In this document: piece by piece, positions 1 through 20,228 of the stretch
How the letters are laid out: each line of letters opens with the position of its first letter
Position numbering within the stretch: the stretch's first letter is position 1
Assembly: GCA_022703645.1 (NCBI GenBank)
Contig: JAKLDG010000001.1
Span: forward strand, 274,814-338,813
Origin: Patescibacteria group bacterium
Lineage (GTDB): Bacteria; Patescibacteriota; JACPGU01
Direction of reading: 5' to 3'
DNA: 64,000 nt
The notes under the pieces: generated by a model
Database searches by the model: none
Told to the model about the DNA's origin: nothing
Seen by the model: only the letters and a program-made list of their open reading frames with translations
Made by a program: the position numbers and the translations under genes

Positions 1-1033
1 TGTCCAGTTTATTCATAAATCCAAGTGAATGTGACGAGAATATTAATTGAGCCTTTTTATTTTTATCTTCATCAATAAAATAACCAATAAGTTTATTTAA
101 AGCTTCCGGATGAAAACCAGTTTCAAGCTCGTCAATAATAACAACATTATTATTTTTCAATGCACTTAGGATATTTGCCATTACAAAGAATAATGATTTA
201 GTGCCTCTCGATTCATATCCAAAATCCAGTTTGTTATTTTCTGTTTTAGTAGAGTGAACGCCTTGTACGGTTATAGAGAATCCCTTTTCTCTGACATCTT
301 CTTTGATTTCAAAACTATTTAACCCAATATCAAAATGGCGAATAAAATTTTCTACTTCTTTTTTTAGTTCAGAATCACTTAAATAAACCTTAAGTGCATC
401 AATTTGATGCATAACATGATTTATTTCGCCTCTTTCATTAATGTTGGTTTTAAATCCTAAGAAATAATCATAAACACTGTTTATGATATCAACGCTATAA
501 GTAGATTTCTTTATAAAGGCTATAAAAGAAACATCCTCTCTTATTTTTGGAAGAGCACTTATAGAAATATTCTTAAAATAATTTTCATTTAACGAATCTA
601 TAGTGCTTAATTGGCGCGAGAATATTTTTATTTTTTTTGAACCCGCTTGGATTGCTTTTATGTATAGGGATTCTTTTGTGATAATGTCTTTTTTTATTGA
701 GAAGTCATAAAAAAACACATTATTATTATGCTCGAATTCAACATAAAAATTTGATAACTTATCATTACCAAAAAAGGTTTTGAAGGCAATGCCTGGCATA
801 AGAGGGAATTCATCATTTATATTTCTGCATACAAAAAACTTTAGAAAACTAAAGAATCTCATGACATTTGTTTTACCCGATGCATTGCCACCAATAAAAC
901 CAGCAATCTTTGTTATTTGGTCGTCAGTCTTCGACTGATAATAGTCGTAAGTTTTTTTCTTTTTCGCTAGAAAACTAATTTCTTGCTCCTTGTTGAAGGA
1001 ATAAAAATTACTAAACTTTACCTTTCTTATCAT
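1..1033 (-). CDS. AAA-family ATPase (AAA_15/AAA_21-like), 3' end beyond window
   Basis: Minus-strand translation from ATG at 1031-1033 gives MIRKVKFSNFYSF...IGGNASGKTN (Walker A GxNxSGKT), later ...VIIDELETGFHPEA (Walker B-like DE plus HP). The reading frame stays open to the window edge. Confidence 0.5.
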   Translation of the reverse strand, partial: MIRKVKFSNFYSFNKEQEISFLAKKKKTYDYYQSKTDDQITKIAGFIGGNASGKTNVMRFFSFLKFFVCRNINDEFPLMPGIAFKTFFGNDKLSNFYVEFEHNNNVFFYDFSIKKDIITKESLYIKAIQAGSKKIKIFSRQLSTIDSLNENYFKNISISALPKIREDVSFIAFIKKSTYSVDIINSVYDYFLGFKTNINERGEINHVMHQIDALKVYLSDSELKKEVENFIRHFDIGLNSFEIKEDVREKGFSITVQGVHSTKTENNKLDFGYESRGTKSLFFVMANILSALKNNNVVIIDELETGFHPEALNKLIGYFIDEDKNKKAQLIFSSHSLGFMNKLD

Positions 1034-1119
1034 ATTTTTTGAGTTATTATTATTTCTCTAGCTAAGTATATCAGTGATTAAATAATAAGTCAAGTTAATA
1101 CAAAATATTGTATTAAGTC

Positions 1120-1480
1120 CTTAGATAGTCATTCATCTCACGGCTTTGCCGTGCCCCCTCTATAATATAAAAAATCAAATTCGTTTTCCCCTATATAAAA
1201 AAGCCTATCAATATTCCTTATTATAAGAAAAATATTTATTGAATTGCGTATAATGTCTCAGTATATCTGATGTTTCGCTCGATACCAAATTAGTTGAAAA
1301 TAGAAGAGCAGAAATATGGACGAACCCCGAGCCGAGGGGTGAGTCAGATATACTGTGTTAGGCGAGGGATTGATTTACTTACATTATTGAATATATATAA
1401 AAAGTAATCAAGAGCGCAGCGCCCCCTTGAGTTTCAAAAAACAAACTTCTCCTTTATTTAAGAGCTCTTTTGGGATTTTT
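1120..1480 (+). repeat. Modular island repeat, copy A (h1 hairpin 1126-1165; three-way-junction core 1250-1362; reversed AAGAGCTCTT module 1414-1480)
   Basis: Core has stem cagtatatctg/cagatatactg, CTGATGT junction, variable hairpin, AATATGG, a GAGCGA-like box and a GTGTTA tail. It is one of 10 copies. Confidence 0.85.
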
Positions 1481-1572
1481 ATTTTAATTGTTAAACAAGG
1501 ATTAATTTTACAGTTAATGTCAAATATGATAAAATGTGGAAAGAAAAAAAGAAAGGAGCGTGACCTTAACAA

Positions 1573-1958
1573 TGGATAATATGACAGCAGTTGTCTGGGC
1601 AAACAGAACGGAGAGAAGAATCTCCCAAAAAGACCTTCAGAAGATAATAAAGGATCATCTTCGCGAACTTGCGGATATGTATAACAAGTTCACGGACGCC
1701 AGTGATTTCACAAATAATGGCATGGATGTTATAGCCAAAGAAATCAGCGAACGCTTAAAAACCCTCATCGTAACAGGTGGCAACCAGATGGTGTCGGTTT
1801 CGGCGAGCGAAGATGATGTTTCAATAGCGCTCATAGAAATGAGCAAAGAAGGATTCTTCGAGGGCGGGCCGACCGGGTTTTTGGTGGTTGATGTGAAGGG
1901 AAGCCTTACGGAGTTCAAGCTGAAGACGGGAGTCAGAACGAAAACTCGATACGAATAA
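1573..1958 (+). CDS. Hypothetical protein (cassette 1; ~50% GC)
   Basis: ORF 1536..1958. An ATG at 1573 follows the RBS-like gaaaggagcg. GC is clearly higher than the flanks. It is followed by a terminator hairpin and T-run at about 1995-2025. Confidence 0.5.
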
Positions 1959-2017
1959 GTTTTCACACGCAATTCATTACACACAATGTCGAAGCTGGCC
2001 GCTGAGGTCGGCTTTTT

Positions 2018-2215
2018 TTCTTTCCCAAAAATCCCAAAAGAGCTCTAATTAAAATATAAAAAAGTTTGTTTTTGAAATTTCGCCTAATGTTTCGGTATAT
2101 CTGATGTCTAGGCTCGCTACCCAATTAAGTTGATGTAGGAAGAGCATAGATATGGGCGCAGGTTTGCGACTTAGCGAACCGTAGCCAGATATACCGTGTT
2201 ATGTGACGTCATGAA
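2018..2215 (+). repeat. Modular island repeat, copy B (forward AAGAGCTCT module 2018-2085; core 2085-2205)
   Basis: Core stem cggtatatctg/cagatataccg, CTGATGT, hairpin, GATATGG, GTGTTA. Confidence 0.85.
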
Positions 2216-2246
2216 AAATTCTTAATTCGACGATTTTAGTCGAATT

Positions 2247-2273
2247 TTAATCAGGGCAGATTTATTTTTTTAT
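2247..2273. repeat. Left 27-bp terminal inverted repeat flanking the cassette-2 methyltransferase gene
   Basis: ttaatcagggcagatttatttttttat is the exact reverse complement of 3058-3084. Confidence 0.9.
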
Positions 2274-3034
2274 TTCTTGGTTATTATGATTAAGTCGTCC
2301 TTAAAATCTAAGTAATTATTCCTTTGATGTTTTATGATGTTGGCTAAAAACTTCTTTACTTCTGTTGCAGTTGGGAGGGTGTTAGTGTTATGTATAAACC
2401 TATAGTAGTTCTTCAAATCAAAGTTTATTTTCCCGCTCAATATATCGCCCACATACATTCGCATTTTGTAGCGCTTTGTTTTTACAGAAAAGCCCTGTTT
2501 TTTATAAAAATCCGAAATATATTCCGAATAATTAAACTTTGGATACACTTGTTTTATAGCAATGTTATAGTGGTCACTTTCTTCAGGTAAGGTTAATATC
2601 AAAAGCTTACCTTTTTTCTTCAACAAGTCAGTCAGTTTTAACAACTGCTCTTGATAACTCTTTTCATCGGATGCCCAGTAATAATTCGTGTGAGAGGTAA
2701 AAATATAATCATATTTTTCATCGGTTTTTAGTTTGGATAGGGGTGCAGTGAATAGCTTTCCTATATTATTCTCGGGCGATAAAAATGTTTTCGCGTACGA
2801 CAGAGCTTTTTTGTTCGGTTCCAATAGATCGCATGAATAATCATACTCCAATCTGTCTAATATCTGTTTTGTAGTATGACCTTCGCCACATCCAATATCT
2901 AAAATCTTTCCACCTTTTATCTCTTTAACTATACCAAATACAATACCGAACCAGTCTTCGGTTAAGGCTCTGATATATATATTCTCATATACTTCTGCGA
3001 ATTGTTTTTCTCCCCAAAAATCCCATTTTGTCAT
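2270..3034 (-). CDS. Class I SAM-dependent methyltransferase (cassette 2)
   Basis: 254 aa with motif I ILDIGCGEGHTT. It is bounded by perfect 27-bp inverted repeats. Confidence 0.65.
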   Translation of the reverse strand: MTKWDFWGEKQFAEVYENIYIRALTEDWFGIVFGIVKEIKGGKILDIGCGEGHTTKQILDRLEYDYSCDLLEPNKKALSYAKTFLSPENNIGKLFTAPLSKLKTDEKYDYIFTSHTNYYWASDEKSYQEQLLKLTDLLKKKGKLLILTLPEESDHYNIAIKQVYPKFNYSEYISDFYKKQGFSVKTKRYKMRMYVGDILSGKINFDLKNYYRFIHNTNTLPTATEVKKFLANIIKHQRNNYLDFKDDLIIITKK

Positions 3035-3057
3035 AAATATATGTATTTTATTATATC

Positions 3058-3084
3058 ATAAAAAAATAAATCTGCCCTGATTAA
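3058..3084. repeat. Right 27-bp terminal inverted repeat (partner of 2247-2273)
   Basis: ataaaaaaataaatctgccctgattaa. Confidence 0.9.
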
Positions 3085-3109
3085 TTTTGCGTGAGCTACG
3101 CAAAAAAGA

Positions 3110-3441
3110 ATTTTTTATTATGTCACATAATGTCTCCGAGTATCTGATGTCTTTGATTTCCTTCAATATTACATTAAATATAAAAGGAAAGCAAAGATAT
3201 GGGTTGAGCGACGGCAGGAGCGAACCAGATACTCGGTGTTGGGCGACCCGAACGAGCTATTCACTTTATTAAATGTAAAAAGCGAGTGAGAGTGCAACGC
3301 GGTGCAAACGTCCATTTTCTTTTTCCTTTATTTATTGCTGGCTGTAACCACTCATAGTATTAGTAATTATAAGAAAATTTTGCTTCTCCATTTTTGGGCG
3401 AGGTCAGAGGGGATTCAGGGGTGAATGACCGAAGCCCAAAA
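3110..3441 (+). repeat. Modular island repeat, copy C (core 3125-3245; tail module; GGGG-loop hairpin 3392-3441)
   Basis: Core stem ccgagtatctg/cagatactcgg, a compensatory variant of copy A. The 3' module is ttttgggcgaggtcagaggggattcaggggtgaatgaccgaagcccaaaa. Confidence 0.85.
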
Positions 3442-3533
3442 TCATAAATGTTTTCAAAAAAATGTTATTTAAGGTATAATATTTGTTGAACAATAAGTTG
3501 TACCCTAAAAAACGAAAAAAGGAGGTGGTGGTT

Positions 3534-4403
3534 GTGATAAAGTTTTCCAATGGTCATGCCTTTGAATACATGACAGCAAGTGGTGCGTTGGGTTTCGACG
3601 GAAAAGGTTGGCCATGGGAAAAACCGTGGCACTGGCTCGGACTTTTTGACCCGACACTCTTTACTTCGGTAACCAAAACATTGACGCTTCAACCAAGGGA
3701 AGGAAATCTGCGGTGGTATAATCCGCTCCGATGTTTGCGGTTCGTCAGCGGTGGGGTCGTCAATGCAGTTGGTTTGTCAAATCATGGCGTTGATTGGTGG
3801 TGCAATAAGATTGGTCCATCAGTCACTTCCAAAAAAATTCCTTTGGTCGCTTCAATTTTTGGGGAACCAGAGGAATTAGTAGAAATGGCAAGAATGCTGG
3901 ACGGTTTTGACTTGGTCGGACTGGAAATCAATGCATCATGTCCGAACACTGAAACTTGCATTCTGCAAGATACTACGAGAGTAATTGCAAGTTGCGAAGC
4001 GGTCAAAACCAATTCACGCCTACCACTGATTCTGAAAGTATCAGTTACTCACGATGTTCCACGAATCACGAAAGAGGTCGAGGGTCTCATTGACGCAATT
4101 TCGATCAATAGCGTTCCTTGGTCAATGGCTTTTCCAAATCGCAGAAGCCCTCTCGAAAATCTCGGAAACGGTGGCGTATCAGGTAAAGTTGCCCAACCGT
4201 TCACGTGGGGCTTGGTCAAAAAAATTACCGAATTAACAAGTATTCCGGTAATCGGACCGAGCGTTTGGGACTTCGACGACCTCGAAAAAGTCAGAAATTT
4301 TGGTGCGAAGGCCGTCAGTTTTGGTTCTGTCTTTCTGTATCGTCCGTGGAGTCCGACGCTGTATGTTCGGAAAGAACAAAAATTCAAACGATTAAGGGTA
4401 TAG
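3534..4403 (+). CDS. Dihydroorotate dehydrogenase-family TIM-barrel flavoprotein (PyrD-like; cassette 3)
   Basis: NAVGLSNHGVDWW and LEINASCPN, the class-1 DHOD active-site Cys motif. The likely start is GTG at 3534 after GGAGGTG; the ORF track began at an upstream TTG. GC is about 47%. A terminator sits at 4404-4440. Confidence 0.55.
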   Translation: MIKFSNGHAFEYMTASGALGFDGKGWPWEKPWHWLGLFDPTLFTSVTKTLTLQPREGNLRWYNPLRCLRFVSGGVVNAVGLSNHGVDWWCNKIGPSVTSKKIPLVASIFGEPEELVEMARMLDGFDLVGLEINASCPNTETCILQDTTRVIASCEAVKTNSRLPLILKVSVTHDVPRITKEVEGLIDAISINSVPWSMAFPNRRSPLENLGNGGVSGKVAQPFTWGLVKKITELTSIPVIGPSVWDFDDLEKVRNFGAKAVSFGSVFLYRPWSPTLYVRKEQKFKRLRV

Positions 4404-4446
4404 TGGCACCCTGTCATAAATGACGAAGCCACTTTTTATTTTCCCC

Positions 4447-4834
4447 TTAAATAGTCCTTCATCTCACAGCTTTGCTGTGCCCCCTATAAATAAAATAAAA
4501 AAGCAAAATTTTCCCTTTGTTAGAAGAAAATAAATATTCAGTCATCACAAACCTTGCCAGCAAAATATAAGAAAAGAAAATGTATGTCGCCCAATGTTTC
4601 CGAGTATCTGATGTTGCTGATTATTTCTACCTTTATTTTATTATATAAAAGAAAAATCAGCAATATGGGTTGAGGGGCGAGCCGAGCCCCGAACCAGATA
4701 CTCGGTGTTAGGCGAGGGTTCATTTCCCCTTCATTATTAGATTAAATATAAAAGGGGGAATGAAAGCGCAGCGCCCCCTTGAGTTTCAAAAAACAAACGT
4801 CACCTCTATCTAAGAGCTCTTTTGGGATTTTTTG
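4447..4834 (+). repeat. Modular island repeat, copy D (h1 hairpin 4450-4493; core 4592-4712; reversed AAGAGCTCTT module 4766-4834)
   Basis: Core stem ccgagtatctg/cagatactcgg. Its internal hairpin is ttgctgattatttct...agaaaaatcagcaa. Confidence 0.85.
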
Positions 4835-4860
4835 GCTCTGGCGAATTGACCAAAAAAAGC

Positions 4861-4889
4861 TTGACAGAGCCACAAATATGTGATACAAT
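4861..4889 (+). promoter_or_regulatory. Sigma70-like promoter for cassette 4 (TTGACA-17-TACAAT)
   Basis: ttgacagagccacaaatatgtgatacaat lies upstream of an AAGGAGG RBS. Confidence 0.6.
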
Positions 4890-4939
4890 GATTATGTAAA
4901 AAATTTAATGCCCGAGTGGCATATAAGGAGGAAAGGACA

Positions 4940-5218
4940 TTGAAAACAAAGAAAGAGTTAATCGAAGAGAAAAGCGACGGTGTGTTCGGCGCTATGACAG
5001 GTCTGGTGCAGTTTGCTTCGCTGGTAAGTGATGAGGAATTCGCACTGCTGTGCGATAACATTCCCAGCGGCGAACATCTCTGGCTGGACTTCAAGAAGTA
5101 CCGCGACTCAAAGTTTGAAGGTTTCGGTATGTTGCACTATTTTCTTGGCAAGCTGGTAAAAGTCAAGCCAGAGATAGCCACGAAACTCGGGTTCGATCCC
5201 GAAACGGTTGCTCTTTAG
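4940..5218 (+). CDS. Hypothetical small protein (cassette 4; ~50% GC)
   Basis: ORF 4916..5218. TTG at 4940 is 7 nt after aaggaggaaagg. It is followed by a terminator. Confidence 0.4.
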   Translation: MKTKKELIEEKSDGVFGAMTGLVQFASLVSDEEFALLCDNIPSGEHLWLDFKKYRDSKFEGFGMLHYFLGKLVKVKPEIATKLGFDPETVAL

Positions 5219-5299
5219 TTCACACTGTACACGTCTGCGGTACAGCAATAAAACTCCGCGCTGAAATGTTCTTCGGAACAAATCGGCCACGGAGTTTTT

Positions 5300-5672
5300 T
5301 TCTTTCCCAAAAATCCCAAAAGAGCTCTAATTAAAATATAAAAAAGTTTGTTTTTTGAAATTTCGCCTAATGTTTCGGTATATCTGATGTTTCAGCTCGA
5401 TACCAAATTAGTTGATAAAAGAAGAGCAGAAATATGGACCGAGCGAGGGCACGAGCGAGTCAGATATACTGTGTTACCCGACCCGAGCATTTCTTTCATC
5501 TTTATTATATGTAAAAGAATGCGAGAGTGCAACGGGGCAAGCCCCCCCAAGGGCGCAGCGTGTATCTTTCGCTCATTGTTATTAGATTGAACACTTAAAA
5601 GAGATTCAAAACAGAATTATTCCATTTTTGGGCGAGGTCAGAGGGGCAGGGGTGAATGACCGAAGCCCAAAA
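5300..5672 (+). repeat. Modular island repeat, copy E (forward AAGAGCTCT module 5300-5368; core 5368-5478; tail; GGGG-loop hairpin 5626-5672)
   Basis: The most complete copy. The core is near-identical to copies G and H. Confidence 0.85.
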
Positions 5673-5685
5673 CCTTAAATGAATT

Positions 5686-6333
5686 TTATTTTTTCTGTCC
5701 GAAGTTAAGTTTGCGAATTACATTGAAATGCATACTTTCGTCAGGAACAATATAAACAAGACCATCGCATAAAAATTCTCCTGCGCTTGTTTTATCTTCC
5801 AATTCTTTCAATAAATCTGCGGTTTCTTCTTTCGAAATGAATTCTGCAATCGTCATGTGCGGGTTGAACGGAAATCTTCTTGGAACAGCTTCTGAAAATA
5901 ATGAAGCGCTTTCAATTTTTTCTCGTACTGCGTTTAGTTCGGTTTGATTTTCCAAAGGGAAAGCAACTCCTGGGTATGGTGGGTAATCCTTGGGTTTGCC
6001 ATAATTAATTTCGAAAGGTTTAATTTCAGAAGCAATGTTCTGCAATTCCTGCCAATCTTCTTCGGTTAATGGTTTGGGTACGGGCACCGAAATACTAATA
6101 TGTGTATCACAACTAGCCTGCGATTTAGGATCATACTTCGAGCGAAGGGAATTGACCAATGAAAGCACCGGTTCAGGCGGCATGATTAAAATGAGTCCAT
6201 AACGATATTCTTTTTCCCAATTTTCCCAATTATCAACATTTGAAACATATTCAGTAATCGGTTTATTTTTTTCAATTTGTTCATGCGCTGGGGTTGAATC
6301 GTTTTTATTCTCTGGCCAATTTTTTTCTGTCAT
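5686..6333 (-). CDS. 2H phosphoesterase (LigT/2',5'-RNA ligase-like; cassette 5)
   Basis: Two H-x-(T/S)-x motifs (CDTHISI and NPHMTI) about 80 aa apart. The N-terminus MTEKNWPE shares the MT..WP leader with cassettes 7 and 8. Confidence 0.55.
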   Translation of the reverse strand: MTEKNWPENKNDSTPAHEQIEKNKPITEYVSNVDNWENWEKEYRYGLILIMPPEPVLSLVNSLRSKYDPKSQASCDTHISISVPVPKPLTEEDWQELQNIASEIKPFEINYGKPKDYPPYPGVAFPLENQTELNAVREKIESASLFSEAVPRRFPFNPHMTIAEFISKEETADLLKELEDKTSAGEFLCDGLVYIVPDESMHFNVIRKLNFGQKK

Positions 6334-6344
6334 ATAATTATTTT

Positions 6345-6794
6345 TATTAATAAATAGTCCTTCAACTCGTAGCTTTGCTACGCCCCTCTTAAATATAAAA
6401 ATTCTGTTTTAATTTTGTTCAGGCTCAGCACAAACATTTAGAAACAAAAAAGAAAGATACATGTCTGGGTAATGTATGCGTATATCTGATGTTTTTGACT
6501 TGCTTCAATGTTAAATTAAATATAGAAAAAAGTCAAAAATATGGACGAGCGACAGCCGGAGCGAGTCAGATATACGCTGTTCTACGACCCGAAGCCCGAT
6601 ATTCAATATTTATTATATGTAAAATCGGGGTGAGAGTGCAACGCGGGCGTCAGCCGTACATTTTCTTTTTCATTATTATTTATTGCTGGCTGTAACCACT
6701 CAGAGTATTAGTTATTAAATGAAAATTTTGCTTCTCCATTTTTTGGGCGAAGGTCAGAGGGGAATTAAAGGGGTGAATGACCTGAGCCCAAAAT
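6345..6794 (+). repeat. Modular island repeat, copy F (h1 variant hairpin 6352-6388; core 6470-6585; tail; GGGG-loop hairpin 6741-6794)
   Basis: h1 is ctcgtagctttgctacg, a compensatory variant of cacggctttgccgtg. Core stem is gcgtatatctg/cagatatacgc. Confidence 0.85.
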
Positions 6795-6876
6795 CCCTTA
6801 ATGAATTTTGGACAAAAAAATATGCCCGGATTACCGCCGGGCGCGGGATCGTTTACAGAACGGAGAGCACAAGGTT

Positions 6877-7203
6877 TCATTTGTGCTCTTGATCAAAAAA
6901 ATCTTCGAAGTCTTTCAGGGTTTTGCGAAGCTTGGATTTTTTTGGTAAGGACTTTTTGCCGTGGGTTTCAATCTCGATTCTCACCGGAACTTCAAATCCT
7001 TTGGTTTTTTCCGTGAAAAACATCGTCCCACTTGTGCCGACAACATCAGCATCCACTTCTCTCAAGAAATCTCTGTTAAATAAAATGGGATGTCTTTTGC
7101 CTTTTGCATCTCCGAGAGAAACTCTGACACTGTGGGGGAGGACTTCGATAACAAGAAAGGGATATCCCTTTTGTTCTTCTGTGCTGAGGGCAGTTTTTTT
7201 CAT
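6877..7203 (-). CDS. Hypothetical protein, 108 aa (cassette 6)
   Basis: ORF only. I could not support a family assignment. Confidence 0.35.
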   Translation of the reverse strand: MKKTALSTEEQKGYPFLVIEVLPHSVRVSLGDAKGKRHPILFNRDFLREVDADVVGTSGTMFFTEKTKGFEVPVRIEIETHGKKSLPKKSKLRKTLKDFEDFFDQEHK

Positions 7204-7317
7204 AATTCAGATTCCTCGCTTCCTTTGGTTTTTTTGATATGTTAAGGTATTTCAATAATACCACAAATGTTTGGATTTGTCAATGGCTTTTTGGCACAAC
7301 AGAGCTAAAAAACCAAA

Positions 7318-7752
7318 TTAAATAGTCCTTCATCTCACGGCTTTGCCGTGCCCCCTCTATAATCAAATAAAAAAGCAAAATTTTCCCTTTGTTAGAAAAG
7401 AATAAATATTCAGTCATCACAAACCTTGCCAGCAAAATATAAGAAAAGAAAATGTATGTCGTAGAATGTCTCAGTATATCTGATGTTTCGCTCGATACCA
7501 AATTAGTTGATAAAAGAAGAGCAGAAATATGGACCGAGCGAGGGCACGAGCGAGTCAGATATACTGTGTTACCCGACCCGAGCATTTCTTTCATCTTTAT
7601 TATATGTAAAAGAATGCGAGAGTGCAACGGGGCGAAGCGTGTATCTTTCTGACTATTGATATTAGAATTAACACTTAAAAGAGAACAAAACAGAATTATT
7701 CCATTTTTGGGCGAGGTCAGAGGGGCAGGGGTGAATGACCGAAGCCCAAAAC
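7318..7752 (+). repeat. Modular island repeat, copy G (h1 hairpin 7322-7366; core 7465-7575; tail; GGGG-loop hairpin 7704-7752)
   Basis: The X-type upstream module is near-identical to 4447-4600. The core is near-identical to copy E. Confidence 0.85.
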
Positions 7753-7753
7753 C

Positions 7754-8602
7754 TTATTTAAAATATTGTGGCACCATCCCTACTTCGGCTAATTTGTTAC
7801 ATTCTATTTCCCACGATTCTTTTTCTTTTTTTGCCATTTCTAAACCCTCCCATAAATCGCTTTTAGAATCTGTGTACAAAAAATTTCTATAAATATTCGA
7901 AAAGGTTGTATGGCGAAAAGATTTTTCTCCATAGGCAACATCTCCTTGATTATCTAAAAATATTTTTTCAATATTATCAACCATCGCGTTCAAACAATGC
8001 AAGAATTCTTGTAGAAAATAAAAAGCATTTCCCATTTTGATTCTTAACTTTTGTTGATAGTCATCAAAATATTCCGGATTAAATGGTCTTGATAGAAATT
8101 GAAAGCAATCCTCCACGCCTTTTGCATCATTTGCAATTCTATCGTAAATTTTTTTTCTAAAATTCGCATCTGATTCATTCTTGGGATCACGATTTTTATC
8201 AATTATTAAAATCGCATCATTAATAATTGGTTCAACATTTTTAACAAAGTAATTTTTAGCCTCGCGCCACTTACCTTCTAATTCTTCTCTTAGTTTTGGA
8301 AATTCCGTTACTTTTATAAATCTAATGTCTTTAGAAGGGGATATGTTAAAGGTAGGATTCTTTATTATAACATCTATTGGTGGAAGCATCCTTGTTAATT
8401 CGTCAATCTTTTCACCTATTTTCTCATCACTAAATTCATTTTTATATTTTTCTAAAAATTTTTCTATATTTTTTATGGTTTTCTCTATAAATTCACTTTT
8501 TTCTGCTCTTTTTTCGACCACATTAATATTATCAACTTTGGGTTGTTCTTCTTTTAGTGGGTTAGTGTTGTCGCCTGTCGGCCATTTTATTGGATCTGTC
8601 AT
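7754..8602 (-). CDS. Hypothetical protein (cassette 7) with the shared MTDPIKWP N-terminal leader
   Basis: ORF 7754..8635 from an upstream TTG inside the repeat module. The ATG at 8602 gives MTDPIKWPTGDNTNP, followed by a Pro/Glu/Lys-rich region. Confidence 0.45.
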   Translation of the reverse strand: MTDPIKWPTGDNTNPLKEEQPKVDNINVVEKRAEKSEFIEKTIKNIEKFLEKYKNEFSDEKIGEKIDELTRMLPPIDVIIKNPTFNISPSKDIRFIKVTEFPKLREELEGKWREAKNYFVKNVEPIINDAILIIDKNRDPKNESDANFRKKIYDRIANDAKGVEDCFQFLSRPFNPEYFDDYQQKLRIKMGNAFYFLQEFLHCLNAMVDNIEKIFLDNQGDVAYGEKSFRHTTFSNIYRNFLYTDSKSDLWEGLEMAKKEKESWEIECNKLAEVGMVPQYFK

Positions 8603-8619
8603 AAGTTTATTTTTTATTA

Positions 8620-9044
8620 ATAAATAGTCCTTCAACTCGTAGCTTTGCTACGCCCCTTTTAAATATAAGAATTCTGTTTTGATTTTATTCAGGTTCAGCA
8701 TAAACATTTAGAAGAAAAAAAGAAAGATACATGTCTGGGTAATGTTTCAGTATATCTGATGTTTCAGCTCGCCACCTTATTCACTTGATAGAGAAAGAGC
8801 AGAAATATGGACCGAGCGAGGGCACGAGCGAGTCAGATATACTGTGTTACCCGACCCGAGCCCTGATACCTTATTTATTATATGCAAAGAAGGGCGAGAG
8901 TGCAACGGGGCAAGCCCCTCAAGGGCGAAGCGTGTATCTTTCTGTTCATTGTTATTAGATTTAATACTTAGAAGAGATTCAAAACAGAATTATTCAATTT
9001 TTGGGCGAGGTCAGAGGGGCAGGGGTGAATGACTGAAGCCCAAA
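8620..9044 (+). repeat. Modular island repeat, copy H (h1 variant 8624-8662; core 8740-8852; tail; GGGG-loop hairpin 8997-9044)
   Basis: Same architecture as copy F and copy E. Confidence 0.85.
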
Positions 9045-9055
9045 ACCTTGATAAT

Positions 9056-9931
9056 TTAATCCTTCTTTTTTGTAAATAAATGCACTGCATTTGGACCAGC
9101 AACACCAAAAATACCTTCATGATGTGTTTTATAACCAGATAGATCAAGAGATTGATGAAGTATAATGCATCCTTCTGGGCTTAGTACTCTATCAATTTCT
9201 TTATTTATAGCCTTAACATATTCTGGGTCTGCATCGTGCATTACACAATCGTCTATACCTGAAGCGTAAATACTAACCGAGTCATCAGGAAGTCTTCTTA
9301 AAAAGGAAAGCATATCTTCATCAGCTACTGAGGCAGGAATCCCGTGAAAATATTCTATCTTCCCTTGTGTATAGTTGCTATTCGTATTGATCAGTTCTGA
9401 TAGTGAGTTCTTTAATTCTGATTTACTTTTGTCTAATGTCTCACTAAGTTGGGAAGAGAAAAATTTATCTACACCGACATATGATTTTGCTCCCAATATG
9501 TCAAGGATGTAGTACGCATCTCTACCGCTCATACCGGCTCCTAGGTCAATTACTATTTGGTTTTTGAGATGTTCCAGCGTAGTCGCAAAGGTTGTGTTTT
9601 GTTCGTTTACTCCTGCATTACGATTTTTAAATTTTTCAATAAGCTCTCCCTCTGTCAAATCCGGATTTGCATTTTTTAAATTAACAAAAAATTTCAAAGG
9701 ATTAATCATCCATCTGAATGCACTATCAGAAAAAGATTGTGGAAGATCGTATCCAGTTTTTTTAAATTCTTTACCAATATCAGTGTTCTGTTCTTTTTCT
9801 TTGATTCCGGGAACTAGCTCTTCAACTGGTCTTAAAATACTTTCTTCTGATTCTTTTTCTACAGTGTTTTCAACTTCAATTTTTGGCTTAGGTGGTTCTG
9901 TATTTGGGTTTGGCCATTTTGGGTCTGTCAT
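9056..9931 (-). CDS. Class I SAM-dependent methyltransferase-like protein (cassette 8) with the shared MTDPKWP leader
   Basis: VIDLGAGMSGRDAYYIL is a motif-I-like sequence. The ATG at 9931 gives MTDPKWPNPNTEPP; the ORF track started at an upstream TTG inside the repeat. Confidence 0.5.
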   Translation of the reverse strand: MTDPKWPNPNTEPPKPKIEVENTVEKESEESILRPVEELVPGIKEKEQNTDIGKEFKKTGYDLPQSFSDSAFRWMINPLKFFVNLKNANPDLTEGELIEKFKNRNAGVNEQNTTFATTLEHLKNQIVIDLGAGMSGRDAYYILDILGAKSYVGVDKFFSSQLSETLDKSKSELKNSLSELINTNSNYTQGKIEYFHGIPASVADEDMLSFLRRLPDDSVSIYASGIDDCVMHDADPEYVKAINKEIDRVLSPEGCIILHQSLDLSGYKTHHEGIFGVAGPNAVHLFTKKKD

Positions 9932-9944
9932 AGATTTATTTTTT

Positions 9945-10310
9945 ACTATTAAATAGTCCTTCAACTCGTAGCTTTGCTACGCCCCTCTTAAATATAAAGA
10001 ATTCTGTTTTGAATTTCGTTAAGCTCAGTACAAGCGTTTAGAAGTAAAAAAGAAAGATACATGTTGGGTAATGTCTCATAGTATCTGATGTTGCTGATTA
10101 TTTCTACCTTGATTATATTATACAGAAGAAAAATCAGCAATATGGGTTGAGGGGCGAGCCGAGCCCCGAACCAGATACTATGTGTTAGGCGAGGGTTCAT
10201 TTCCCCTTCATTATTAGATTAAATATAAAAAGGAAATGAAAGCGCAGCGCCCCCTTGAGTTTCAAAAAACAAACTTCACCTCTATTTAAGAGCTCTTTTG
10301 GGATTTTTTG
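9945..10310 (+). repeat. Modular island repeat, copy I (h1 variant 9948-9986; core 10070-10190; reversed AAGAGCTCTT module 10240-10310)
   Basis: Core stem catagtatctg/cagatactatg, another compensatory variant. Confidence 0.85.
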
Positions 10311-10318
10311 GCTACCTA

Positions 10319-10347
10319 TTGACATTTTTTGGGAAATATGATAAGAT
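10319..10347 (+). promoter_or_regulatory. Sigma70-like promoter for cassette 9 (TTGACA-17-TAAGAT)
   Basis: ttgacattttttgggaaatatgataagat upstream of an aaaggag RBS. Confidence 0.5.
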
Positions 10348-10397
10348 TAATTATCGGTTTTTGCGGATATATAATCCAATAGAAAGGAGTAAAATCG

Positions 10398-10790
10398 ATG
10401 ATCTTTAAGAACTTACAATTGGAAACAGGCGACTTTGTTGCGTTTCAAACAGAGGCTGTTCCGCTTCCGGAAGTTCAGGCGGCTGTCATCGGTATTGAGG
10501 ATGGCGTACTCGAAGTCATGAGTACCTTGCTCGCACCATTCCAGCACAACGGGAAATTTACAGAAGACGAGGTAGGCCAAATCATGGTCGTCTATCCATC
10601 AGCGATTGCCATTCCTCGGGAGTCTCGAGGCAAAAACTTCTCTAAACACCAAGGTGTATCCGTCATCATCAAGGGCGGAGAGGAACATCGGGGTGAAGTT
10701 GTTGCTGCGTTCGACGGTATCGTCGTGGCACGCAGAAGCGATGGTGAGCTGATCACCGGCGGAGCTTCGCATTTCAATGCTGTTGCCTAA
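10398..10790 (+). CDS. Hypothetical protein, 130 aa (cassette 9; ~50% GC)
   Basis: ATG with RBS. GC is well above the flanks. A terminator follows at about 10815-10846. Confidence 0.5.
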   Translation: MIFKNLQLETGDFVAFQTEAVPLPEVQAAVIGIEDGVLEVMSTLLAPFQHNGKFTEDEVGQIMVVYPSAIAIPRESRGKNFSKHQGVSVIIKGGEEHRGEVVAAFDGIVVARRSDGELITGGASHFNAVA

Positions 10791-10842
10791 GAATCGACAG
10801 CAAGTCCTGCTAATTGAGCGCACGACCTACGGGTACGGCGCT

Positions 10843-11135
10843 TTTTTCTTCCCTAAAAATCCCAAAAGAGCTCTAATTAAAATATAAAAAAGTTTGTTTT
10901 TTGAAATTTCGCCTAACGTTTCGGCATATCTGATGTTTGCCGTAGCGTAGCGAAGGCAAATATGGGTGGAGGCTTTTGTATAAAAGCCGTAACCAGATAT
11001 GCCGTGTTATGTGATGTGCATGTTTTACTTTAATCCTGATAGCAATCGGGATTGCTCTAAAAAAGAATTTTAATTTTGTTTTTTTGTTTTGGATTTTGGG
11101 CAGAGGGGTTAGGGGTGAATGCCCAAAATCCAAAA
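10843..11135 (+). repeat. Modular island repeat, copy J (forward AAGAGCTCT module 10843-10918; core 10915-11012; GGGG-loop hairpin 11089-11129)
   Basis: Core stem cggcatatctg/cagatatgccg. The perfect hairpin is ggattttgggc-agaggggttaggggtgaa-tgcccaaaatcc. Confidence 0.85.
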
Positions 11136-11139
11136 CTCC

Positions 11140-11547
11140 TTATTCTGCTAATAATTTAAACACTAAGCTAAATATTTTTGGTGAAAAATCTTTATAAATT
11201 AACTCTCTCGTCTCGTCCTCACCAAATGACCAAAATTTACCATTAATTTCTAAACCAGTAGGATAATGACTCTCGTGAAATAATTTATTTCTTATTTCTC
11301 TTAAAGATTCTAAAAATTTAAGTTCCGCGTCATCAATTAAATCCTTTTCTTTAGCTTCTGTAATTATTCTATGAAAATTGCCGTCAATTTTATTGACAGA
11401 AAATTTTATAATCTGTTCTGACAAAACAAATAGACAAGCAAGCGCAGAAAAGTAATTTTCTTGTTCATAAGAATTTTGTGCCTCGAAACATAATTTCCCA
11501 AAAATATGGTCTCTTTCATTTATTTTTGCAATTATATCGGTATTCAT
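11140..11547 (-). CDS. Hypothetical protein, 135 aa, co-oriented with and abutting the C5-methyltransferase gene
   Basis: ORF only. Its stop is 2 nt from the methyltransferase start. Confidence 0.4.
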   Translation of the reverse strand: MNTDIIAKINERDHIFGKLCFEAQNSYEQENYFSALACLFVLSEQIIKFSVNKIDGNFHRIITEAKEKDLIDDAELKFLESLREIRNKLFHESHYPTGLEINGKFWSFGEDETRELIYKDFSPKIFSLVFKLLAE

Positions 11548-11549
11548 GT

Positions 11550-12527
11550 TTATTTCAAATCAGCCATTATTTTTTTTGCTAAATGGTGGGCAAAATTTAC
11601 TGCGACAGCATTTCCAATCATTTTATATCCGTCGGCAATATCACGATATTTAAAAATAAAATTATCAGGGAATGTTTGAATCCTTGCACATTCACGAACA
11701 GACAAGCGACGATATAAATGTTCTTTTCCGGGAACAAAAATTCTTTTATTTTGACTGATAAATTTCATTTTCGGAGCTTGGGGATGAATTGGAGCATGGC
11801 GACCACCGGCTTGAATGGTAAAAGAAGGTTCATCCCATGAGCGAACACGATTTCGCGACATATAAATTGAAGAAAAACCGCCATTCATGTATTCGTGATT
11901 TGGAATTTTTAACACATCGCCATTTGTCTTATTTTTATCTAACGCAGGTTTTGCTAAACGCAAATCATAAATAGCGTCTTTCAATACTGGTTTATATTTT
12001 TGCGGTTCTGGAAATTCAAATTTTTTCTTTAGTTTTTTATTATATCCAACAATAATGACACGCAATCTATCTTCAGGAACATCATAATCATTTGCATTTA
12101 ATAATTTGCAGGAAATTTCATATCCAGCATTTTCAAATTCTTTTATTATATTTGAAAAAGCCTCTTTGTGTTTAGGGTGAAGAATACCCGATACATTTTC
12201 TGCAAGAAAAAATTTTGGTTGTTTTTCCTTTAATAAACGAATGTAATCATAAAATAATTTTCCTCTTTTATCATTTATTCCACGTCCAGCCCCAGCCTCG
12301 CTCCAACTTTGACAAGGTGGTCCGCCAATGATTCCGTCAACATCGGGAATTTCAGAAGCAGGGACGTCGACAATACTTCTTTTATCAAGTTTTGTTTTTG
12401 GAAAATTGTGTTCAAAAGTTTCCCAAATTGTGGGGTCATATTCATTTGCCCAGACGACATGAAAACCAGCTTTTTCAAAGCCTAAATCAAGTCCTCCTGC
12501 ACCTGTAAACAATGAAGCTATTTTCAT
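11550..12527 (-). CDS. DNA (cytosine-5)-methyltransferase
   Basis: Motif I FTGAGGLDLGF, motif IV GGPPCQSWS, ENV. Confidence 0.9.
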   Translation of the reverse strand: MKIASLFTGAGGLDLGFEKAGFHVVWANEYDPTIWETFEHNFPKTKLDKRSIVDVPASEIPDVDGIIGGPPCQSWSEAGAGRGINDKRGKLFYDYIRLLKEKQPKFFLAENVSGILHPKHKEAFSNIIKEFENAGYEISCKLLNANDYDVPEDRLRVIIVGYNKKLKKKFEFPEPQKYKPVLKDAIYDLRLAKPALDKNKTNGDVLKIPNHEYMNGGFSSIYMSRNRVRSWDEPSFTIQAGGRHAPIHPQAPKMKFISQNKRIFVPGKEHLYRRLSVRECARIQTFPDNFIFKYRDIADGYKMIGNAVAVNFAHHLAKKIMADLK

Positions 12528-12529
12528 AA

Positions 12530-13534
12530 TTATTCGTGACTAATATTTAGTGTGTTTTTAAATAATTTTTTCGGCGATTTCAAAAGATTTATATCAAATT
12601 TCAAAGACGATTCAACCCTAGAACTTGCATTATGAATACGAAAAGAAAGAGTCCAATCATTATTCATGGTTACTATTGCCGTTGTTTGGCTATCGGTTTT
12701 GAAACAAATATCAACAATTTCTGTTGGCAATGGAACTTTTGGTGTTTTGTATTTTGGAAGAATGTCGTTAAAAGGCAAATTTAATGTTCCATTCAAATTG
12801 TATGCGTGTATTTCTACACTATTTTTGCCTTTAATAACTTTGTAAAAATCTTTATTTCCAACGAGGTATGCAACTAGATTAGACGCTACTTTTTTAGAAT
12901 CTTTTTTGTATAGATTTTTCAGTTCTTTAATAAAGGCTTTTAAAATTGGAATATAGATTGATGAATGATAATCACCAAGCTCACTCCACTTTTTCTTTGC
13001 ACCGCTTTCTTTTCTAATTTTCTCTAAATTGTTAAAAATAGGTGTTACTGTTTCAAAATATTCTTTTGATGTTTTTATTCCAAGCCACTTTTCACCAAAA
13101 TCAATATTTGAAGATAGTCGGGAATGCTTTACTGCATGATGATTGTTTTTGGCCGATACTCCAATTTCCCATTTTTGCAACAAACGAATTGCTAAAACAT
13201 CTCTAACATCGCCTGATTTTCCATGTTGATCGGATAAAATTTCAAGTTGCAGAATATCATCTTTACCAACATCATTTGTGAGGCGTGGCTCTATATCCAT
13301 TAGAAAATTAACCGCAAAACTAGCGGTGAGTAAATAATCACTTTTTTCTGTTTCGCTCACATTTTCAAAACATCCTTTTGCAATTTCAAAAGAAGAATTT
13401 TTGATAACTTCAAGATTTGTTTTATCTTTCAATTTTTCTTCAAATTGAACAAGTAAAGCATATTCAAAAGATTTTCCAGTTGTCATTTGTCTTGATGCAG
13501 TAGTAGTCATATTTTTATTATTACATTTTTCCAT
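12530..13534 (-). CDS. Putative cognate Type II restriction endonuclease
   Basis: 334-aa ORF directly upstream of and co-oriented with the C5-methyltransferase gene. I recognise no motif, so the call rests on context only. Confidence 0.35.
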   Translation of the reverse strand: MEKCNNKNMTTTASRQMTTGKSFEYALLVQFEEKLKDKTNLEVIKNSSFEIAKGCFENVSETEKSDYLLTASFAVNFLMDIEPRLTNDVGKDDILQLEILSDQHGKSGDVRDVLAIRLLQKWEIGVSAKNNHHAVKHSRLSSNIDFGEKWLGIKTSKEYFETVTPIFNNLEKIRKESGAKKKWSELGDYHSSIYIPILKAFIKELKNLYKKDSKKVASNLVAYLVGNKDFYKVIKGKNSVEIHAYNLNGTLNLPFNDILPKYKTPKVPLPTEIVDICFKTDSQTTAIVTMNNDWTLSFRIHNASSRVESSLKFDINLLKSPKKLFKNTLNISHE

Positions 13535-13662
13535 TTAAAAATAAATCGTTTTCGTAGCGGAGCGGAGAAAACACCTTATACCCCTTTCTAATTAATAAAA
13601 AACAAAATTTAAATTCTTTTTTAGAGCTGGGCGATAGCCCAAAAGTAAAACATGCATTTCAC

Positions 13663-13709
13663 ATAACTCGTTTTTATCTGAATATATTTCAGATAAAAAC
13701 GAGTTACGG
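13663..13709. promoter_or_regulatory. Perfect 19-bp-arm palindrome in the divergent region between the REase and recombinase genes
   Basis: taactcgtttttatctgaa-tatat-ttcagataaaaacgagtta. It contains the ATCTGA/TCAGAT boxes also present in the repeat cores. Confidence 0.5.
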
Positions 13710-13783
13710 TAGTTTATGCGGTTATTGTGTACATTCTTCAACATCTTTGATATTATCGATTTAATATTATCATTTTTTATTAT

Positions 13784-14605
13784 ATGCAACAATACTTAGA
13801 TAGATTGTCGCAGGAATTACGATTAAGAAATTATAGTAACAGCACGGTCGAAAGTTACCTGACGTGCGTGAAATATTATTTTTATTTTGTGGAAAGAAAT
13901 GGCGCAAGAATTGAAGATGGTGATCAGGATATTCTCAAATCATTTCTTCTTGATAAACATAACAAAGGGTCCTCATCACAAACGATCAATCTTTATCTCA
14001 ATGCGATAAAGTTTTTTTATCGGGAAATCATGAAATCACCACAAAGTATCGATATTAGATTTGCCAAGAAATCAAATAAGCTGCCGGTAGTCCTCTCGCA
14101 TGATGAGATTGAAAGAATTATTGAAGTAACAAAAAATTCAAAGCATCGGCTCATTATTTCGCTGAGCTATGGCGCAGGGTTGAGAGTGAGCGAAATCATA
14201 AGTTTAAAAGTTAAAGACTTGGATTTGGATAGCTTAACGATTCACCTAAAAAATGCGAAGGGGAAAAAGGACAGAATTACGGTTTTGCCGGTAAAATTAG
14301 TTAATTCTTTGCGCAATGCGGTTGCGGGCAAGGATATTGATGATCTGGTTTTTGAAAGCGAGAGAGGCGGGGGATTGACCGATCGGACTGCACAGGTCAT
14401 TTTCAACAATGGGTTGAGGAGAGCGGGAATCAAAAAAGAAGCGACATTCCACTCGCTTCGCCATTCGTTCGCTACACATCTGCTTGAAAACGGTACAGAC
14501 ATTCGTTACATTCAAGAATTGCTTGGACATCAAAATATTCGAACGACTCAAATTTATACAAAAGTGACAAACCCGGCGGTACGCAATATAAAAAGCCCGC
14601 TGTAA
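13784..14605 (+). CDS. Tyrosine site-specific recombinase (XerC/D-like phage-integrase family)
   Basis: AGLRVSE (catalytic Arg), HSLRHSFATHLL (H-x-x-R), LGHQNIRTTQIYTKV (nucleophilic Tyr). At 273 aa it is shorter than classical IntI. Confidence 0.85.
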   Translation: MQQYLDRLSQELRLRNYSNSTVESYLTCVKYYFYFVERNGARIEDGDQDILKSFLLDKHNKGSSSQTINLYLNAIKFFYREIMKSPQSIDIRFAKKSNKLPVVLSHDEIERIIEVTKNSKHRLIISLSYGAGLRVSEIISLKVKDLDLDSLTIHLKNAKGKKDRITVLPVKLVNSLRNAVAGKDIDDLVFESERGGGLTDRTAQVIFNNGLRRAGIKKEATFHSLRHSFATHLLENGTDIRYIQELLGHQNIRTTQIYTKVTNPAVRNIKSPL

Positions 14606-14624: not shown

Positions 14625-15152
14625 ATGCAAAACGAAAATAAAAATAGAAAATCAATCCGTTTAAAAGAATATGATTATTCTGAACCAGGAGATTATTTTG
14701 TTACAATTTGCACACAGAATCGAGAATGTTTGTTTGGGGAGATTGTAGACGGTAAGATGATTTTAAATGAAATGGGATTAATAGTTAATGATTGTTGGAA
14801 TGATTTAGAAAATCATTACCCGGGAATTTATTTGGATATATTTACAATCATGCCGAACCATATTCATTTTATATTAACAATATTGTGCGATGATCATATT
14901 GTAGGGGCGGGTTTGAAACCCGCCCCTACGGGGAAGCGATATCAATTGTTCGAGATAATTCGTGGGTTCAAAACATTCTCTGCAAGAAAAATAAATAAAA
15001 TGAAAAATACATCTGGTAATCCTGTTTGGCAACGCAACTATTACGAACACATCGTTCGCAACGAACAATCTTACGATGAAATTTATTCTTACATAGAGTC
15101 TAATTCTCAAACCTGGGATCGGGATAGGAATAATCCAAAAAATATGATATAA
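14625..15152 (+). CDS. IS200/IS605-family HUH transposase-like protein (RAYT/TnpA-REP-like)
   Basis: 175 aa with an HUH motif in IMPNHIHFIL. It contains an in-frame REP-like palindrome at 14901-14929. Confidence 0.65.
   Translation: MQNENKNRKSIRLKEYDYSEPGDYFVTICTQNRECLFGEIVDGKMILNEMGLIVNDCWNDLENHYPGIYLDIFTIMPNHIHFILTILCDDHIVGAGLKPAPTGKRYQLFEIIRGFKTFSARKINKMKNTSGNPVWQRNYYEHIVRNEQSYDEIYSYIESNSQTWDRDRNNPKNMI
14901..14929. repeat. REP-like palindrome GTAGGGGCGGGTTTGAAACCCGCCCCTAC inside the transposase ORF
   Basis: Perfect 13-bp arms. The same GTAGGGGCG head occurs at three operon-end hairpins. Confidence 0.7.
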
Positions 15153-20153: not shown

Positions 20154-20228
20154 CGTTTCAGAACCGTTTCAATTTAAATTGGATGGAATAATTAAAAGAA
20201 CCCGCTCTTATGAGCGGGTTTAAATTTT

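Follow-up and report, generated by a model that had tools for sequence, protein, structure and literature searches.

Based on the comparative analysis reported here, we suggest that a tyrosine recombinase gene on a chromosome of the candidate phyla radiation (CPR; Patescibacteria) is probably the integrase of an integron-like cassette platform and that it services the array of attC-like sites next to it. The gene lies at 13784..14605 on the + strand of a 64-kb stretch of contig JAKLDG010000001.1, which we refer to as the window and to which all coordinates apply unless a locus is named; the analysis covered 72 kb of the 866-kb contig. In this reading, an integron-like platform would be combined with an integrase of the Xer type and with sites of a geometry of their own. 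An earlier note on this DNA had proposed that a Xer-like, non-IntI recombinase services the array via folded single-stranded sites, and the sequence comparisons support this proposal through a conserved site abutting the array, covariation within the sites, a cassette signature at their ends and the co-occurrence of sites and recombinase in other genomes.

The window contains ten copies of the repeat between 1243 and 11017, each ~100-120 nt long and on the + strand. These structured copies are e1 (1243..1368), e2 (2077..2209), e3 (3120..3249), e4 (4584..4718), e5 (5360..5484; its L stem has one G.T wobble), e6 (6462..6590), e7 (7456..7579), e8 (8732..8857), e9 (10061..10195) and e10 (10906..11017), the last full copy. 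On the contig, 15 sites lie between window coordinates -7354 and 11008, all in direct orientation; the array spans at least 21 kb with at least 15 cassettes, runs at least 7.3 kb past the left end of the window and is still going where the fetched sequence ends. A site reads ATTTC-N5-AAY, GTNT, five variable nucleotides plus TATCTGA, TG, hairpin 1, ATATGG, hairpin 2, (T/C)CAGATA plus five variable nucleotides, a single T and GTT-N5-GAKG. In the fold, the 12-nt R boxes (ATTTC-N5-AAY and GTT-N5-GAKG) form a 12-bp R stem, followed by an internal loop of 3-4 nt on one side and the single T on the other (3-4 x 1 nt), an uninterrupted 11-12-bp L stem and a branched top. This geometry differs from the canonical attC layout, R-UCS-L (UCS, unpaired central spacer).

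The fold is conserved while the sequence varies. AAY...GTT is invariant across the sites, and the five variable positions of the L arms co-vary perfectly (CAGTA/TACTG, CGGTA/TACCG, CCGAG/CTCGG, GCGTA/TACGC, CATAG/CTATG and CGGCA/TGCCG). In the alignment of the 10 copies, 99% of the cells are paired and 10 of the 20 pairs have changed on both sides; on four of five pairing measures, none of 500 shuffles reached the observed value, and in a control in which the partners were slid by 1-3 columns just 24-54% of the cells paired. Because of conserved G.T wobbles, the + strand of the sites folds 2-4 kcal/mol better than the - strand. The majority of the cassette open reading frames (ORFs) are on the - strand, divergent from the recombinase gene, and the better-folding + strand is therefore the "bottom" strand relative to them, with its GTT end pointing to the recombinase. 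In classical integrons, too, it is the bottom strand that folds and the GTT end that is turned toward the integrase.

The R boxes carry the signature expected of cassettes. Each 3' box shows complementarity to the 5' box of the following site, and not to the one within its own site, as would be the case if a cassette is a circle opened inside the conserved triplet (AA|C). Between R'(n) and R''(n+1), i.e. in cognate pairs, an average of 10.4 of the 12 positions match, compared with 8.3 in non-cognate pairs, and the observed sum was reached in 0 of 100,000 permutations. This test took in e10 paired with 13656-13667. The end of e10 at 11017 is 2.77 kb from the start of the recombinase gene and a HaeIII-type restriction-modification (R-M) pair lies in between. 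The box at 13656..13667 (+ strand, ATTTCACATAAC) closes cassette 1 as its 5' R box and is complementary to the 3' box of e10 (GTTATGTGATG); specifically, GTTATGTGA in e10 is complementary to CACATAAC at 13660-13667, 116 nt 5' of the start codon of the recombinase gene. Since the partner of the e10 3' box is located here, the R-M pair and the 135-aa ORF beside it form cassette 1 and are not a spacer. The R-M module had earlier been thought to separate the gene from the array; instead, the array ends with a terminal site at 13656-13709, 116 nt from the start codon. Cassette 1 (10917..13666, - strand) thus comprises the HaeIII-type restriction endonuclease (12530-13534), the C5 cytosine methyltransferase (C5-MTase; 11550-12527) and the 135-aa ORF (11140-11547), all on the - strand, together with its own attC-like site, e10.

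At 13665-13667, variable DNA gives way to a conserved site, AAC|TCGTTTTTAT..., and the crossover is predicted to occur within or beside this AAC. The putative attI-like, integrase-proximal site at 13668..13709 (+ strand) reads TCGTTTTTATCTGAA-TATAT-TTCAGATAAAAACGA and then GTTACGG, which is followed by TAGTTTATGCGG; it folds with -19.2 kcal/mol (z -7.3). Its left arm (TCGTTTTTAT...) is conserved in relatives, and the right arm of the palindrome is lost in many of them. A second conserved motif, TAGTTTATGCGGTTATTGTG at 13710..13729 (+ strand; TTTTATGCGAA or TATTATACGAA in relatives), repeats, in direct orientation, the proximal site's core, TTTATNNG. Beside the gene, the TCGTTTTTAT... and TTTATGCG motifs resemble direct-repeat binding sites of the attI kind, and the second motif could be a predicted second binding site and/or part of the integrase promoter. 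A sigma-70-like consensus match (TGTACA-17-TATTAT with an upstream TG; 13728..13756, + strand) lies 28 nt before the ATG; the number of such matches in the region is not above the shuffled expectation. A half-site next to the integrase gene that co-varies with the L box of the array, as the window and locus L009 had indicated, was considered and given up, as L084 and L085 contradict it.

Related loci of other CPR genomes show the same arrangement. Because the L-box sequence is not conserved between genomes (ATATCTGA, ATGCGA, GATTAAGAG and GGATAAAAGA), sites were sought by geometry, i.e. AAY followed by a bulge of 2-5 nt, a stem of 10 bp or more and then T and GTT; this scanner replaced an earlier one keyed on the TAT..GA core, which was too specific. 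In the window, the geometry scanner found 10/10 sites with two false matches in the remainder of the 64 kb on both strands. In 22 CPR loci, it gave 17 matches upstream of the recombinase gene on the recombinase strand (0.20/kb) compared with 0.024, 0.046 and 0.033 matches/kb in the other three sectors. With manual inspection added, at least one convincing site is present in 13 of the 17 independent loci with at least 300 nt of upstream DNA (L003, L009, L084, L085, L089, L091-L096, L176 and L177). L001, L005 and L173 have at most 1 kb of upstream sequence, and in L087 the array is reduced to one small cassette with a degenerate junction (L087:9300-9400, TTTTGCGCAAC-ATCAGG-GTTATAC), in which the 5' and 3' R boxes have no L stem between them. 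The co-occurrence of recombinase and repeat family that the earlier note had proposed to check is thus found in divergent CPR genomes.

The junction next to the gene is conserved as well. In all 10 loci tested, a 9-nt stretch complementary to R' of the last site is present; in seven loci, it is located 105-138 nt before the ATG, just ahead of a TCGTTTTTAT-type site, and in the remaining three it starts a further site that the scanner had missed. An ATTTC-N5-AAC|T... boundary is present 104-129 nt 5' of the ATG in 17 of 23 loci. In an alignment of four genomes, conservation begins exactly at AAC|TCGTTTTTATG, and the DNA before it consists of unrelated cassettes; L085 and L089 have a common downstream synteny and different first cassettes. 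Among the matches listed, the recombinase gene lies 4-580 nt from the contig end, on the upstream side, in 8 of 9 relatives from genome collections, and a relative with 71% identity is represented by three contigs from three samples, each of which ends ~1 kb upstream of the gene. Contig ends would be expected at this position if repeats break assemblies there, as repeat arrays usually do.

The recombinase itself is, as had been noted from the sequence, a 273-aa tyrosine recombinase with the R...HxxR...Y motifs. It matches Phage_integrase of Pfam over residues 103-262 (E=1e-41), and its N-terminal part matches a SAM-like domain (E=2e-12). R134, H223, R226, H249 and Y258, i.e. an intact R-H-R-H-Y set, are invariant across 29 aligned family members. 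The ATG start codon is backed by homologues of 270-273 aa that align over 100% of the ORF. No other tyrosine recombinase is encoded within the window. A protein search returned at least 7,988 homologues at E<=1e-20; the best 120 of these are all ~270 aa and 62-82% identical, and their named sources are Patescibacteria/Parcubacteria. They are labelled "tyrosine-type recombinase", "XerD" or "site-specific tyrosine recombinase/integron integrase". The family is thus widespread in the CPR, with ~65% identity and uniform length. An AlphaFold model from the 29-sequence alignment is poor in the catalytic domain (mean predicted local distance difference test score 64.8, predicted template-modelling score 0.38).

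By profile and structure, the closest matches are to integron integrases. The best NCBIfam match is the integron integrase model TIGR02249, with 223.5 bits (under the cutoff of 265), and the best match in PDB is Vibrio cholerae IntIA (VchIntIA; 2A3V, E=2e-47), followed by the XerA structures 4A8E and 5HXY and then by XerD and XerH. The protein stays under the cutoffs of PRK15417 (IntI; 156.4 bits, cutoff 435) and of the XerC and XerD equivalog models (184.2 bits, cutoff 335, and 179.8 bits, cutoff 330). On the XerA-type model NF040815 (cutoff 220), it scores 214.8 bits and its relatives 217-236 (235.9 for the L084 relative). In the alignment to 2A3V, residues 3-181 correspond to IntI 4-182 and residues 203-273 to IntI 247-317, through a shared C-terminal SPL, and IntI residues 183-246 are matched only by the short stretch 182-202. 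The spacing from KGxKxR to HxLRH is 58 residues in the window protein and in all its CPR relatives, 60-66 in XerC, XerD and XerA and 100-117 in 25 insertion-bearing IntI. Thus, the IntI-specific insertion of ~42 aa is absent, and the description of the protein as shorter than integron integrases and without their extra domain holds.

In a neighbour-joining tree of 159 sequences with XerC, XerD, XerA and IntI as references, the insertion-bearing IntI are monophyletic in 60/60 bootstraps with the CPR proteins outside, and a sister grouping of CPR proteins and IntI appears in 0/60. By Kimura distance, IntI is nevertheless the nearest characterised relative of the window protein (1.25, compared with 1.28 for other short recombinases, 1.34-1.53 for XerA and 1.7 for E. 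coli XerC/XerD). The earlier designation as "not IntI-like" is therefore half right: It fits the missing insertion and the position outside the IntI clade, and it does not fit the best PDB and NCBIfam matches, both of which are integron integrases, nor the distances. On sequence grounds, the enzyme is a short IntI/XerA-related recombinase that is no IntI proper and yet not un-IntI-like. A probable counterpart of the family is the "Cand" subgroup (Smyshlyaev et al. 2021, PMC8138268), a group of simple tyrosine recombinases from candidate phyla that is treated there as presumed Xer substitutes and for which arrays or sites are not mentioned.

In the model that we suggest, which takes IntI and the action of XerCD on attP of CTX phage as its analogues, the recombinase would bind a site's + strand in folded form and would cleave it at AA|Y of the triplet. 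Single-strand exchange with the proximal site would give integration, while exchange with another array site would excise a cassette circle; replication would then resolve the strand-exchange intermediate. Because the recombinase is highly conserved across the CPR, it may also be the chromosome-dimer resolvase (Xer) of the cell; the cassette-integrase reading does not depend on such a dual role. In a broader version, which we hold as a tentative possibility, a single phylum-wide Xer-like recombinase in the CPR would have two jobs, chromosome maintenance and cassette capture beside its own gene, and the CPR would have preserved a "proto-integron" state in which folded single-stranded cassette sites are recombined without the extra domain of IntI. 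Were this correct, the short recombinases of Ignavibacteriota, Bacteroidota and others would probably preserve this state as well.

Several points weigh against the assignment of the recombinase as cassette integrase. The support for its acting on the array is entirely comparative. According to a passage in PMC9668308 that cites Messier & Roy 2001, the IntI insertion is necessary for attC recombination, and this counts against the assignment because the window recombinase has no insertion. An identity of ~65% throughout the radiation would be expected of a housekeeping gene more than of the integrase of a mobile element, and the "Cand" group figures as Xer stand-ins (Smyshlyaev et al., PMC8138268). 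L box and proximal half-site do not co-vary cleanly, as the L084 array site has TATCTGAA and the site next to the gene TATACGAA. The second conserved motif coincides in part with promoter-like sequence and could be no more than a promoter. The long terminal inverted repeats of the cassettes (see below) are absent from classical cassettes and not explained by the model. Finally, the related loci were all retrieved via the recombinase protein, and arrays away from such genes were therefore outside the sample.

As an alternative, the recombinase could be a housekeeping Xer and nothing else, with an upstream site that is dif-like or autoregulatory; the array would then be adjacent for unrelated reasons, and its movement, if any, would be due to another agent. 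A site beside the gene is also what single-Xer systems have, for example XerS/difSL. The phylum-wide occurrence and uniform length of the family, its NF040815 score close to the cutoff and the placement of the "Cand" group as Xer substitutes (PMC8138268) are also in line with this explanation. However, it leaves unaccounted for that the boundary between variable and conserved DNA falls at the same AAC triplet and at the same distance from the gene in 17/23 loci, that the last array site is complementary to this boundary, and that array sites and proximal sites have the AAY...GTT core and a box of the TAT-NN-GA type in common. Moreover, a canonical 11-6-11 palindrome is not conserved, as many relatives have lost the right arm; genes point away from the locus on both sides, L084 has dnaA at a distance of 6 kb, and the locus thus looks like the origin side rather than the terminus, where a dif site would be sought. 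We therefore regard an exclusively housekeeping function as unlikely. That the repeats instead act as RNA, i.e. as insulators, terminators or processing signals, with the inverted repeats pairing the 5' and 3' ends of mRNAs in what is an ordinary transfer hotspot, is quite improbable. Covariation by itself fits RNA and single-stranded DNA alike, and the cassettes do have conserved modules in their 5' untranslated regions (UTRs), 3' hairpin modules and terminal inverted repeats of 50-80 nt. By contrast, an Rfam search at gathering thresholds gave zero matches anywhere in the window, and the G.T wobbles are antisense to most cassette ORFs, so that the cassette mRNAs would carry the worse-folding complement. 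In addition, the sharp DNA-level boundary at AAC by the recombinase gene in many genomes is a recombination signature, and the complementarity of 9-12 nt between consecutive sites, which ends exactly at AAY/GTT, would be left unexplained.

The remaining alternatives invoke other modes of DNA mobility. The hairpin elements might be substrates of a Y1 (HUH) transposase of the kind associated with repetitive extragenic palindromes (REPs), such as that encoded at 14625-15152, and the tyrosine recombinase a bystander. Y1 enzymes act on single-stranded hairpins, a gene resembling REP-associated tyrosine transposases lies directly 3' of the recombinase gene (NF047646 52.7 bits, cutoff 80), and a Y1_Tnp gene is present inside the L084 array (6192-6794). 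However, the closest syntenic relative, L173, in which the recombinase gene is followed by obg, has no Y1 gene, and none was called within 20 kb in L085, L087, L089, L176, L177 and L178. The elements, with 100-120 nt and an AAC/GTT core, are not REP-like, and complementarity between R'(n) and R''(n+1) is foreign to REPs and bacterial interspersed mosaic elements, all of which makes this explanation very improbable. Lastly, the 80-nt inverted repeats on both sides of the R-M module, the small size of tyrosine invertases and weak matches to invertase profiles (63-66 bits) could suggest a DNA invertase that flips segments bounded by inverted repeats, such as the R-M module, as in shufflons or phase variation. 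We give this hardly any credence: 15 of the 15 structured sites share one orientation, the inverted repeats correspond to cassette ends tipped by R boxes, orientation is the same in three independent assemblies, and the scores of the invertase hidden Markov models are far under their cutoffs.

If the recombinase is the integrase of the array, as we favour, the closest known counterparts are integrons, among them the sedentary chromosomal ones and those from archaea (Ghaly et al. 2022). In both, the recombinase gene lies by the insertion site and is divergent from a one-directional array of mostly single-gene cassettes, and the sites at the cassette ends are imperfectly palindromic, conserved in structure and variable in sequence except for an invariant AAC...GTT. 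Each 3' box matches the 5' box of the site that comes next, the bottom strand folds better, the GTT end is turned toward the integrase, and the cargo is accessory (R-M, methyltransferases and proteins without assigned function). VchIntIA is the best solved-structure match of the window protein, with the C-terminal ...SPL in common. Unlike integron integrases, the window recombinase lacks the IntI insertion, which the IntI of the archaeal integrons of Ghaly et al. has as an extra domain, scores below the TIGR02249 cutoff, falls outside the IntI clade and is ~65% identical across a whole radiation. The sites differ in their 12-bp R stem, 3-4 x 1 nt loop, uninterrupted 11-12-bp L stem and branched top, and several of the cassettes differ in their terminal inverted repeats of 50-80 nt and conserved UTR modules.

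Xer systems that act on folded sites, i.e. attP(+) of CTX phage with XerCD/dif1 and integrative mobile elements exploiting Xer (IMEX), resemble the platform in a simple recombinase without an arm-binding domain. In both cases, the folded strand would mimic a duplex core site, one strand exchange plus replication (as proposed here) would suffice, tandem build-up at one chromosomal site is possible and the enzyme may be a housekeeping one. By contrast, the CPR locus has no recognisable canonical 28-bp dif and looks origin-proximal, its inserts are single-gene cassettes instead of phage genomes, and one recombinase would take the place of XerC plus XerD; E. coli XerC/XerD are also the most distant of the references compared with the window protein. 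Archaeal XerA (NF040815) has the same length and two-domain layout and provides the second and third PDB matches, but XerA is known as a dif resolvase for which cassette arrays have not been described, and the window protein scores just below the NF040815 cutoff. The pdif modules of Acinetobacter are accessory-gene modules bounded by Xer-type sites and assorted between replicons. However, pdif sites are duplex sites of 28 bp for XerC/XerD that alternate in orientation and are found on plasmids, while the sites here are structured, ~110 nt long, in direct orientation and next to the recombinase gene. The likeness to the "Cand" recombinases (PMC8138268) is that of probable members of the same protein family.

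Integrons are defined by IntI with its extra domain, which is regarded as needed for recombination of folded attC sites, and because of this definition, arrays without such an IntI are labelled by search tools as orphan attC clusters that have no integron integrase (CALINs). IntegronFinder identifies IntI via protein profiles and attC via covariance models. In the full-text literature searched, with subscription journals outside its scope, we found no description of cassette arrays or attC-like sites in CPR/Patescibacteria and none of integron-like systems with an insertion-less integrase. IntegronFinder is said to require the extra domain through an IntI-specific profile and would then call this locus a CALIN at best. 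If our model is correct, the extra domain is not required for an integron-like lifestyle, and the CPR platform would represent a concrete intermediate between Xer and IntI for the question of how integrons originated. The platform would also be a major overlooked route of gene flux in episymbiotic bacteria with tiny genomes, carrying defence genes such as the R-M pair here, and would give a reason why CPR assemblies often break just upstream of the recombinase gene.

Arrays with the same geometry may extend well beyond the CPR, which we regard as a lead. On NF040815 and TIGR02249, recombinases of other phyla that are short, IntI-like and insertion-less obtain scores much like those of the CPR proteins; examples are from Ignavibacteriota (L014), Bacteroidota and unassigned metagenome contigs (L109, L120 and L126). 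Downstream of these genes, on the opposite strand, the geometry scanner gave 29 matches in 399 kb (0.073/kb) compared with ~0.007/kb in the other sectors. The arrays next to short IntI-like genes lie at L014:12404-17337, L109:4050-8150, L120:12257-19776, L126:12241-19633 and L035:11575-12348. Here, the gene reads toward the array, and the GTT end again faces the gene. Loci with insertion-bearing IntI gave two matches in 274 kb; a control scan for classical attC (4-6 x 4-6 nt loops, 8-bp stems) was too noisy.

Cassettes 2-11 occupy 1..10916, with their ORFs mostly on the - strand. They encode an S-adenosylmethionine (SAM) methyltransferase (2270-3034, -), a DHO_dh-like protein (3483-4403, +), a member of the 2'-5' RNA ligase family (5686-6333, -) and proteins without an assigned family (6877-7203, 7754-8635 and 9056-9964, all -, and 10398-10790, +). 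Cassette order and orientation do not differ between three assemblies of the strain. The SAM-methyltransferase cassettes of the window and L085 were considered as a shared cassette and dismissed, as they are not close homologues. Left of the window on the same contig, one cassette encodes an AAA_15/AAA_21 ATPase with a 160-aa partner (L081:12002-13670), possibly a defence pair, and another a sigma-70 family protein (L081:18029-18571).

Several cassettes are bounded by imperfect terminal inverted repeats of ~50-80 nt, the tips of which are the R boxes, so that they extend the R stem. The pair that flanks the R-M module is ~80 nt long (11003-11084 / 13597-13670); further, imperfect pairs are at 2199-2273 / 3058-3130, 1432-1481 / 2024-2046, 4813-4835 / 5306-5328 and 10289-10311 / 10852-10874. 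Arm scores have a mean of 21.4 for cognate and 10.8 for non-cognate pairs. Also unlike classical cassettes, several cassettes have 5'UTR and 3' hairpin modules in common. A hairpin-containing stretch of ~50 nt 5' of the first cassette ORF, AAATAAATCGTTTTCGNAGCG..GAGAAAACACCTT.TACCCC, is present both in the window (13541-13590) and in L084 (L084:9250-9300); the two are ~90% identical, while the recombinases are 65% identical, and the stretch is possibly a 5'UTR or promoter module that cassettes have in common. A conserved hairpin, TTTTTGGGCGAGGTCAGAGGGG...CAGGGGTGAATGACCGAAGCCCAAAA, occurs at 3386-3450, 5620-5681, 7699-7760, 8993-9054 and 11085-11144. Four of these copies directly follow the stop codons of - strand cassette ORFs (those at 5686, 7754, 9056 and 11140); the exception, 3386-3450, lies just 5' of the + strand ORF 3483-4403. 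Window cassettes 1, 4 and 9 have both ends in common and different ORFs, and a 300-nt stretch in the array left of the window is 100% identical at L081:15475-15774 and 20073-20372 on the same contig. Together, these observations point to recent duplication or exchange inside the array.

On the other side, the recombinase gene is followed on the + strand by obg, rpoB, rpoC and a run of + strand ORFs; genes were assigned by Pfam up to rpoB, and the run beyond rpoC is taken to be ribosomal-protein operons. Between the recombinase gene and obg lies the gene for the REP-associated tyrosine transposase-like (Y1/HUH) protein (14625-15152, +; 175 aa); since the syntenic relative L173 lacks it, it is an insertion here. 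Paired heptamer arrays, (AATTTTC)n and then (TTGAAAA)n, are found in intergenic positions at 28513-28622, 30733-30848, 36000-36108, 38607-38722 and 60375-60405. They occur after rpoC and between later genes of the + strand operons, where they make up long inverted repeats rich in A and T that may serve as a terminator or punctuation element specific to this genome.

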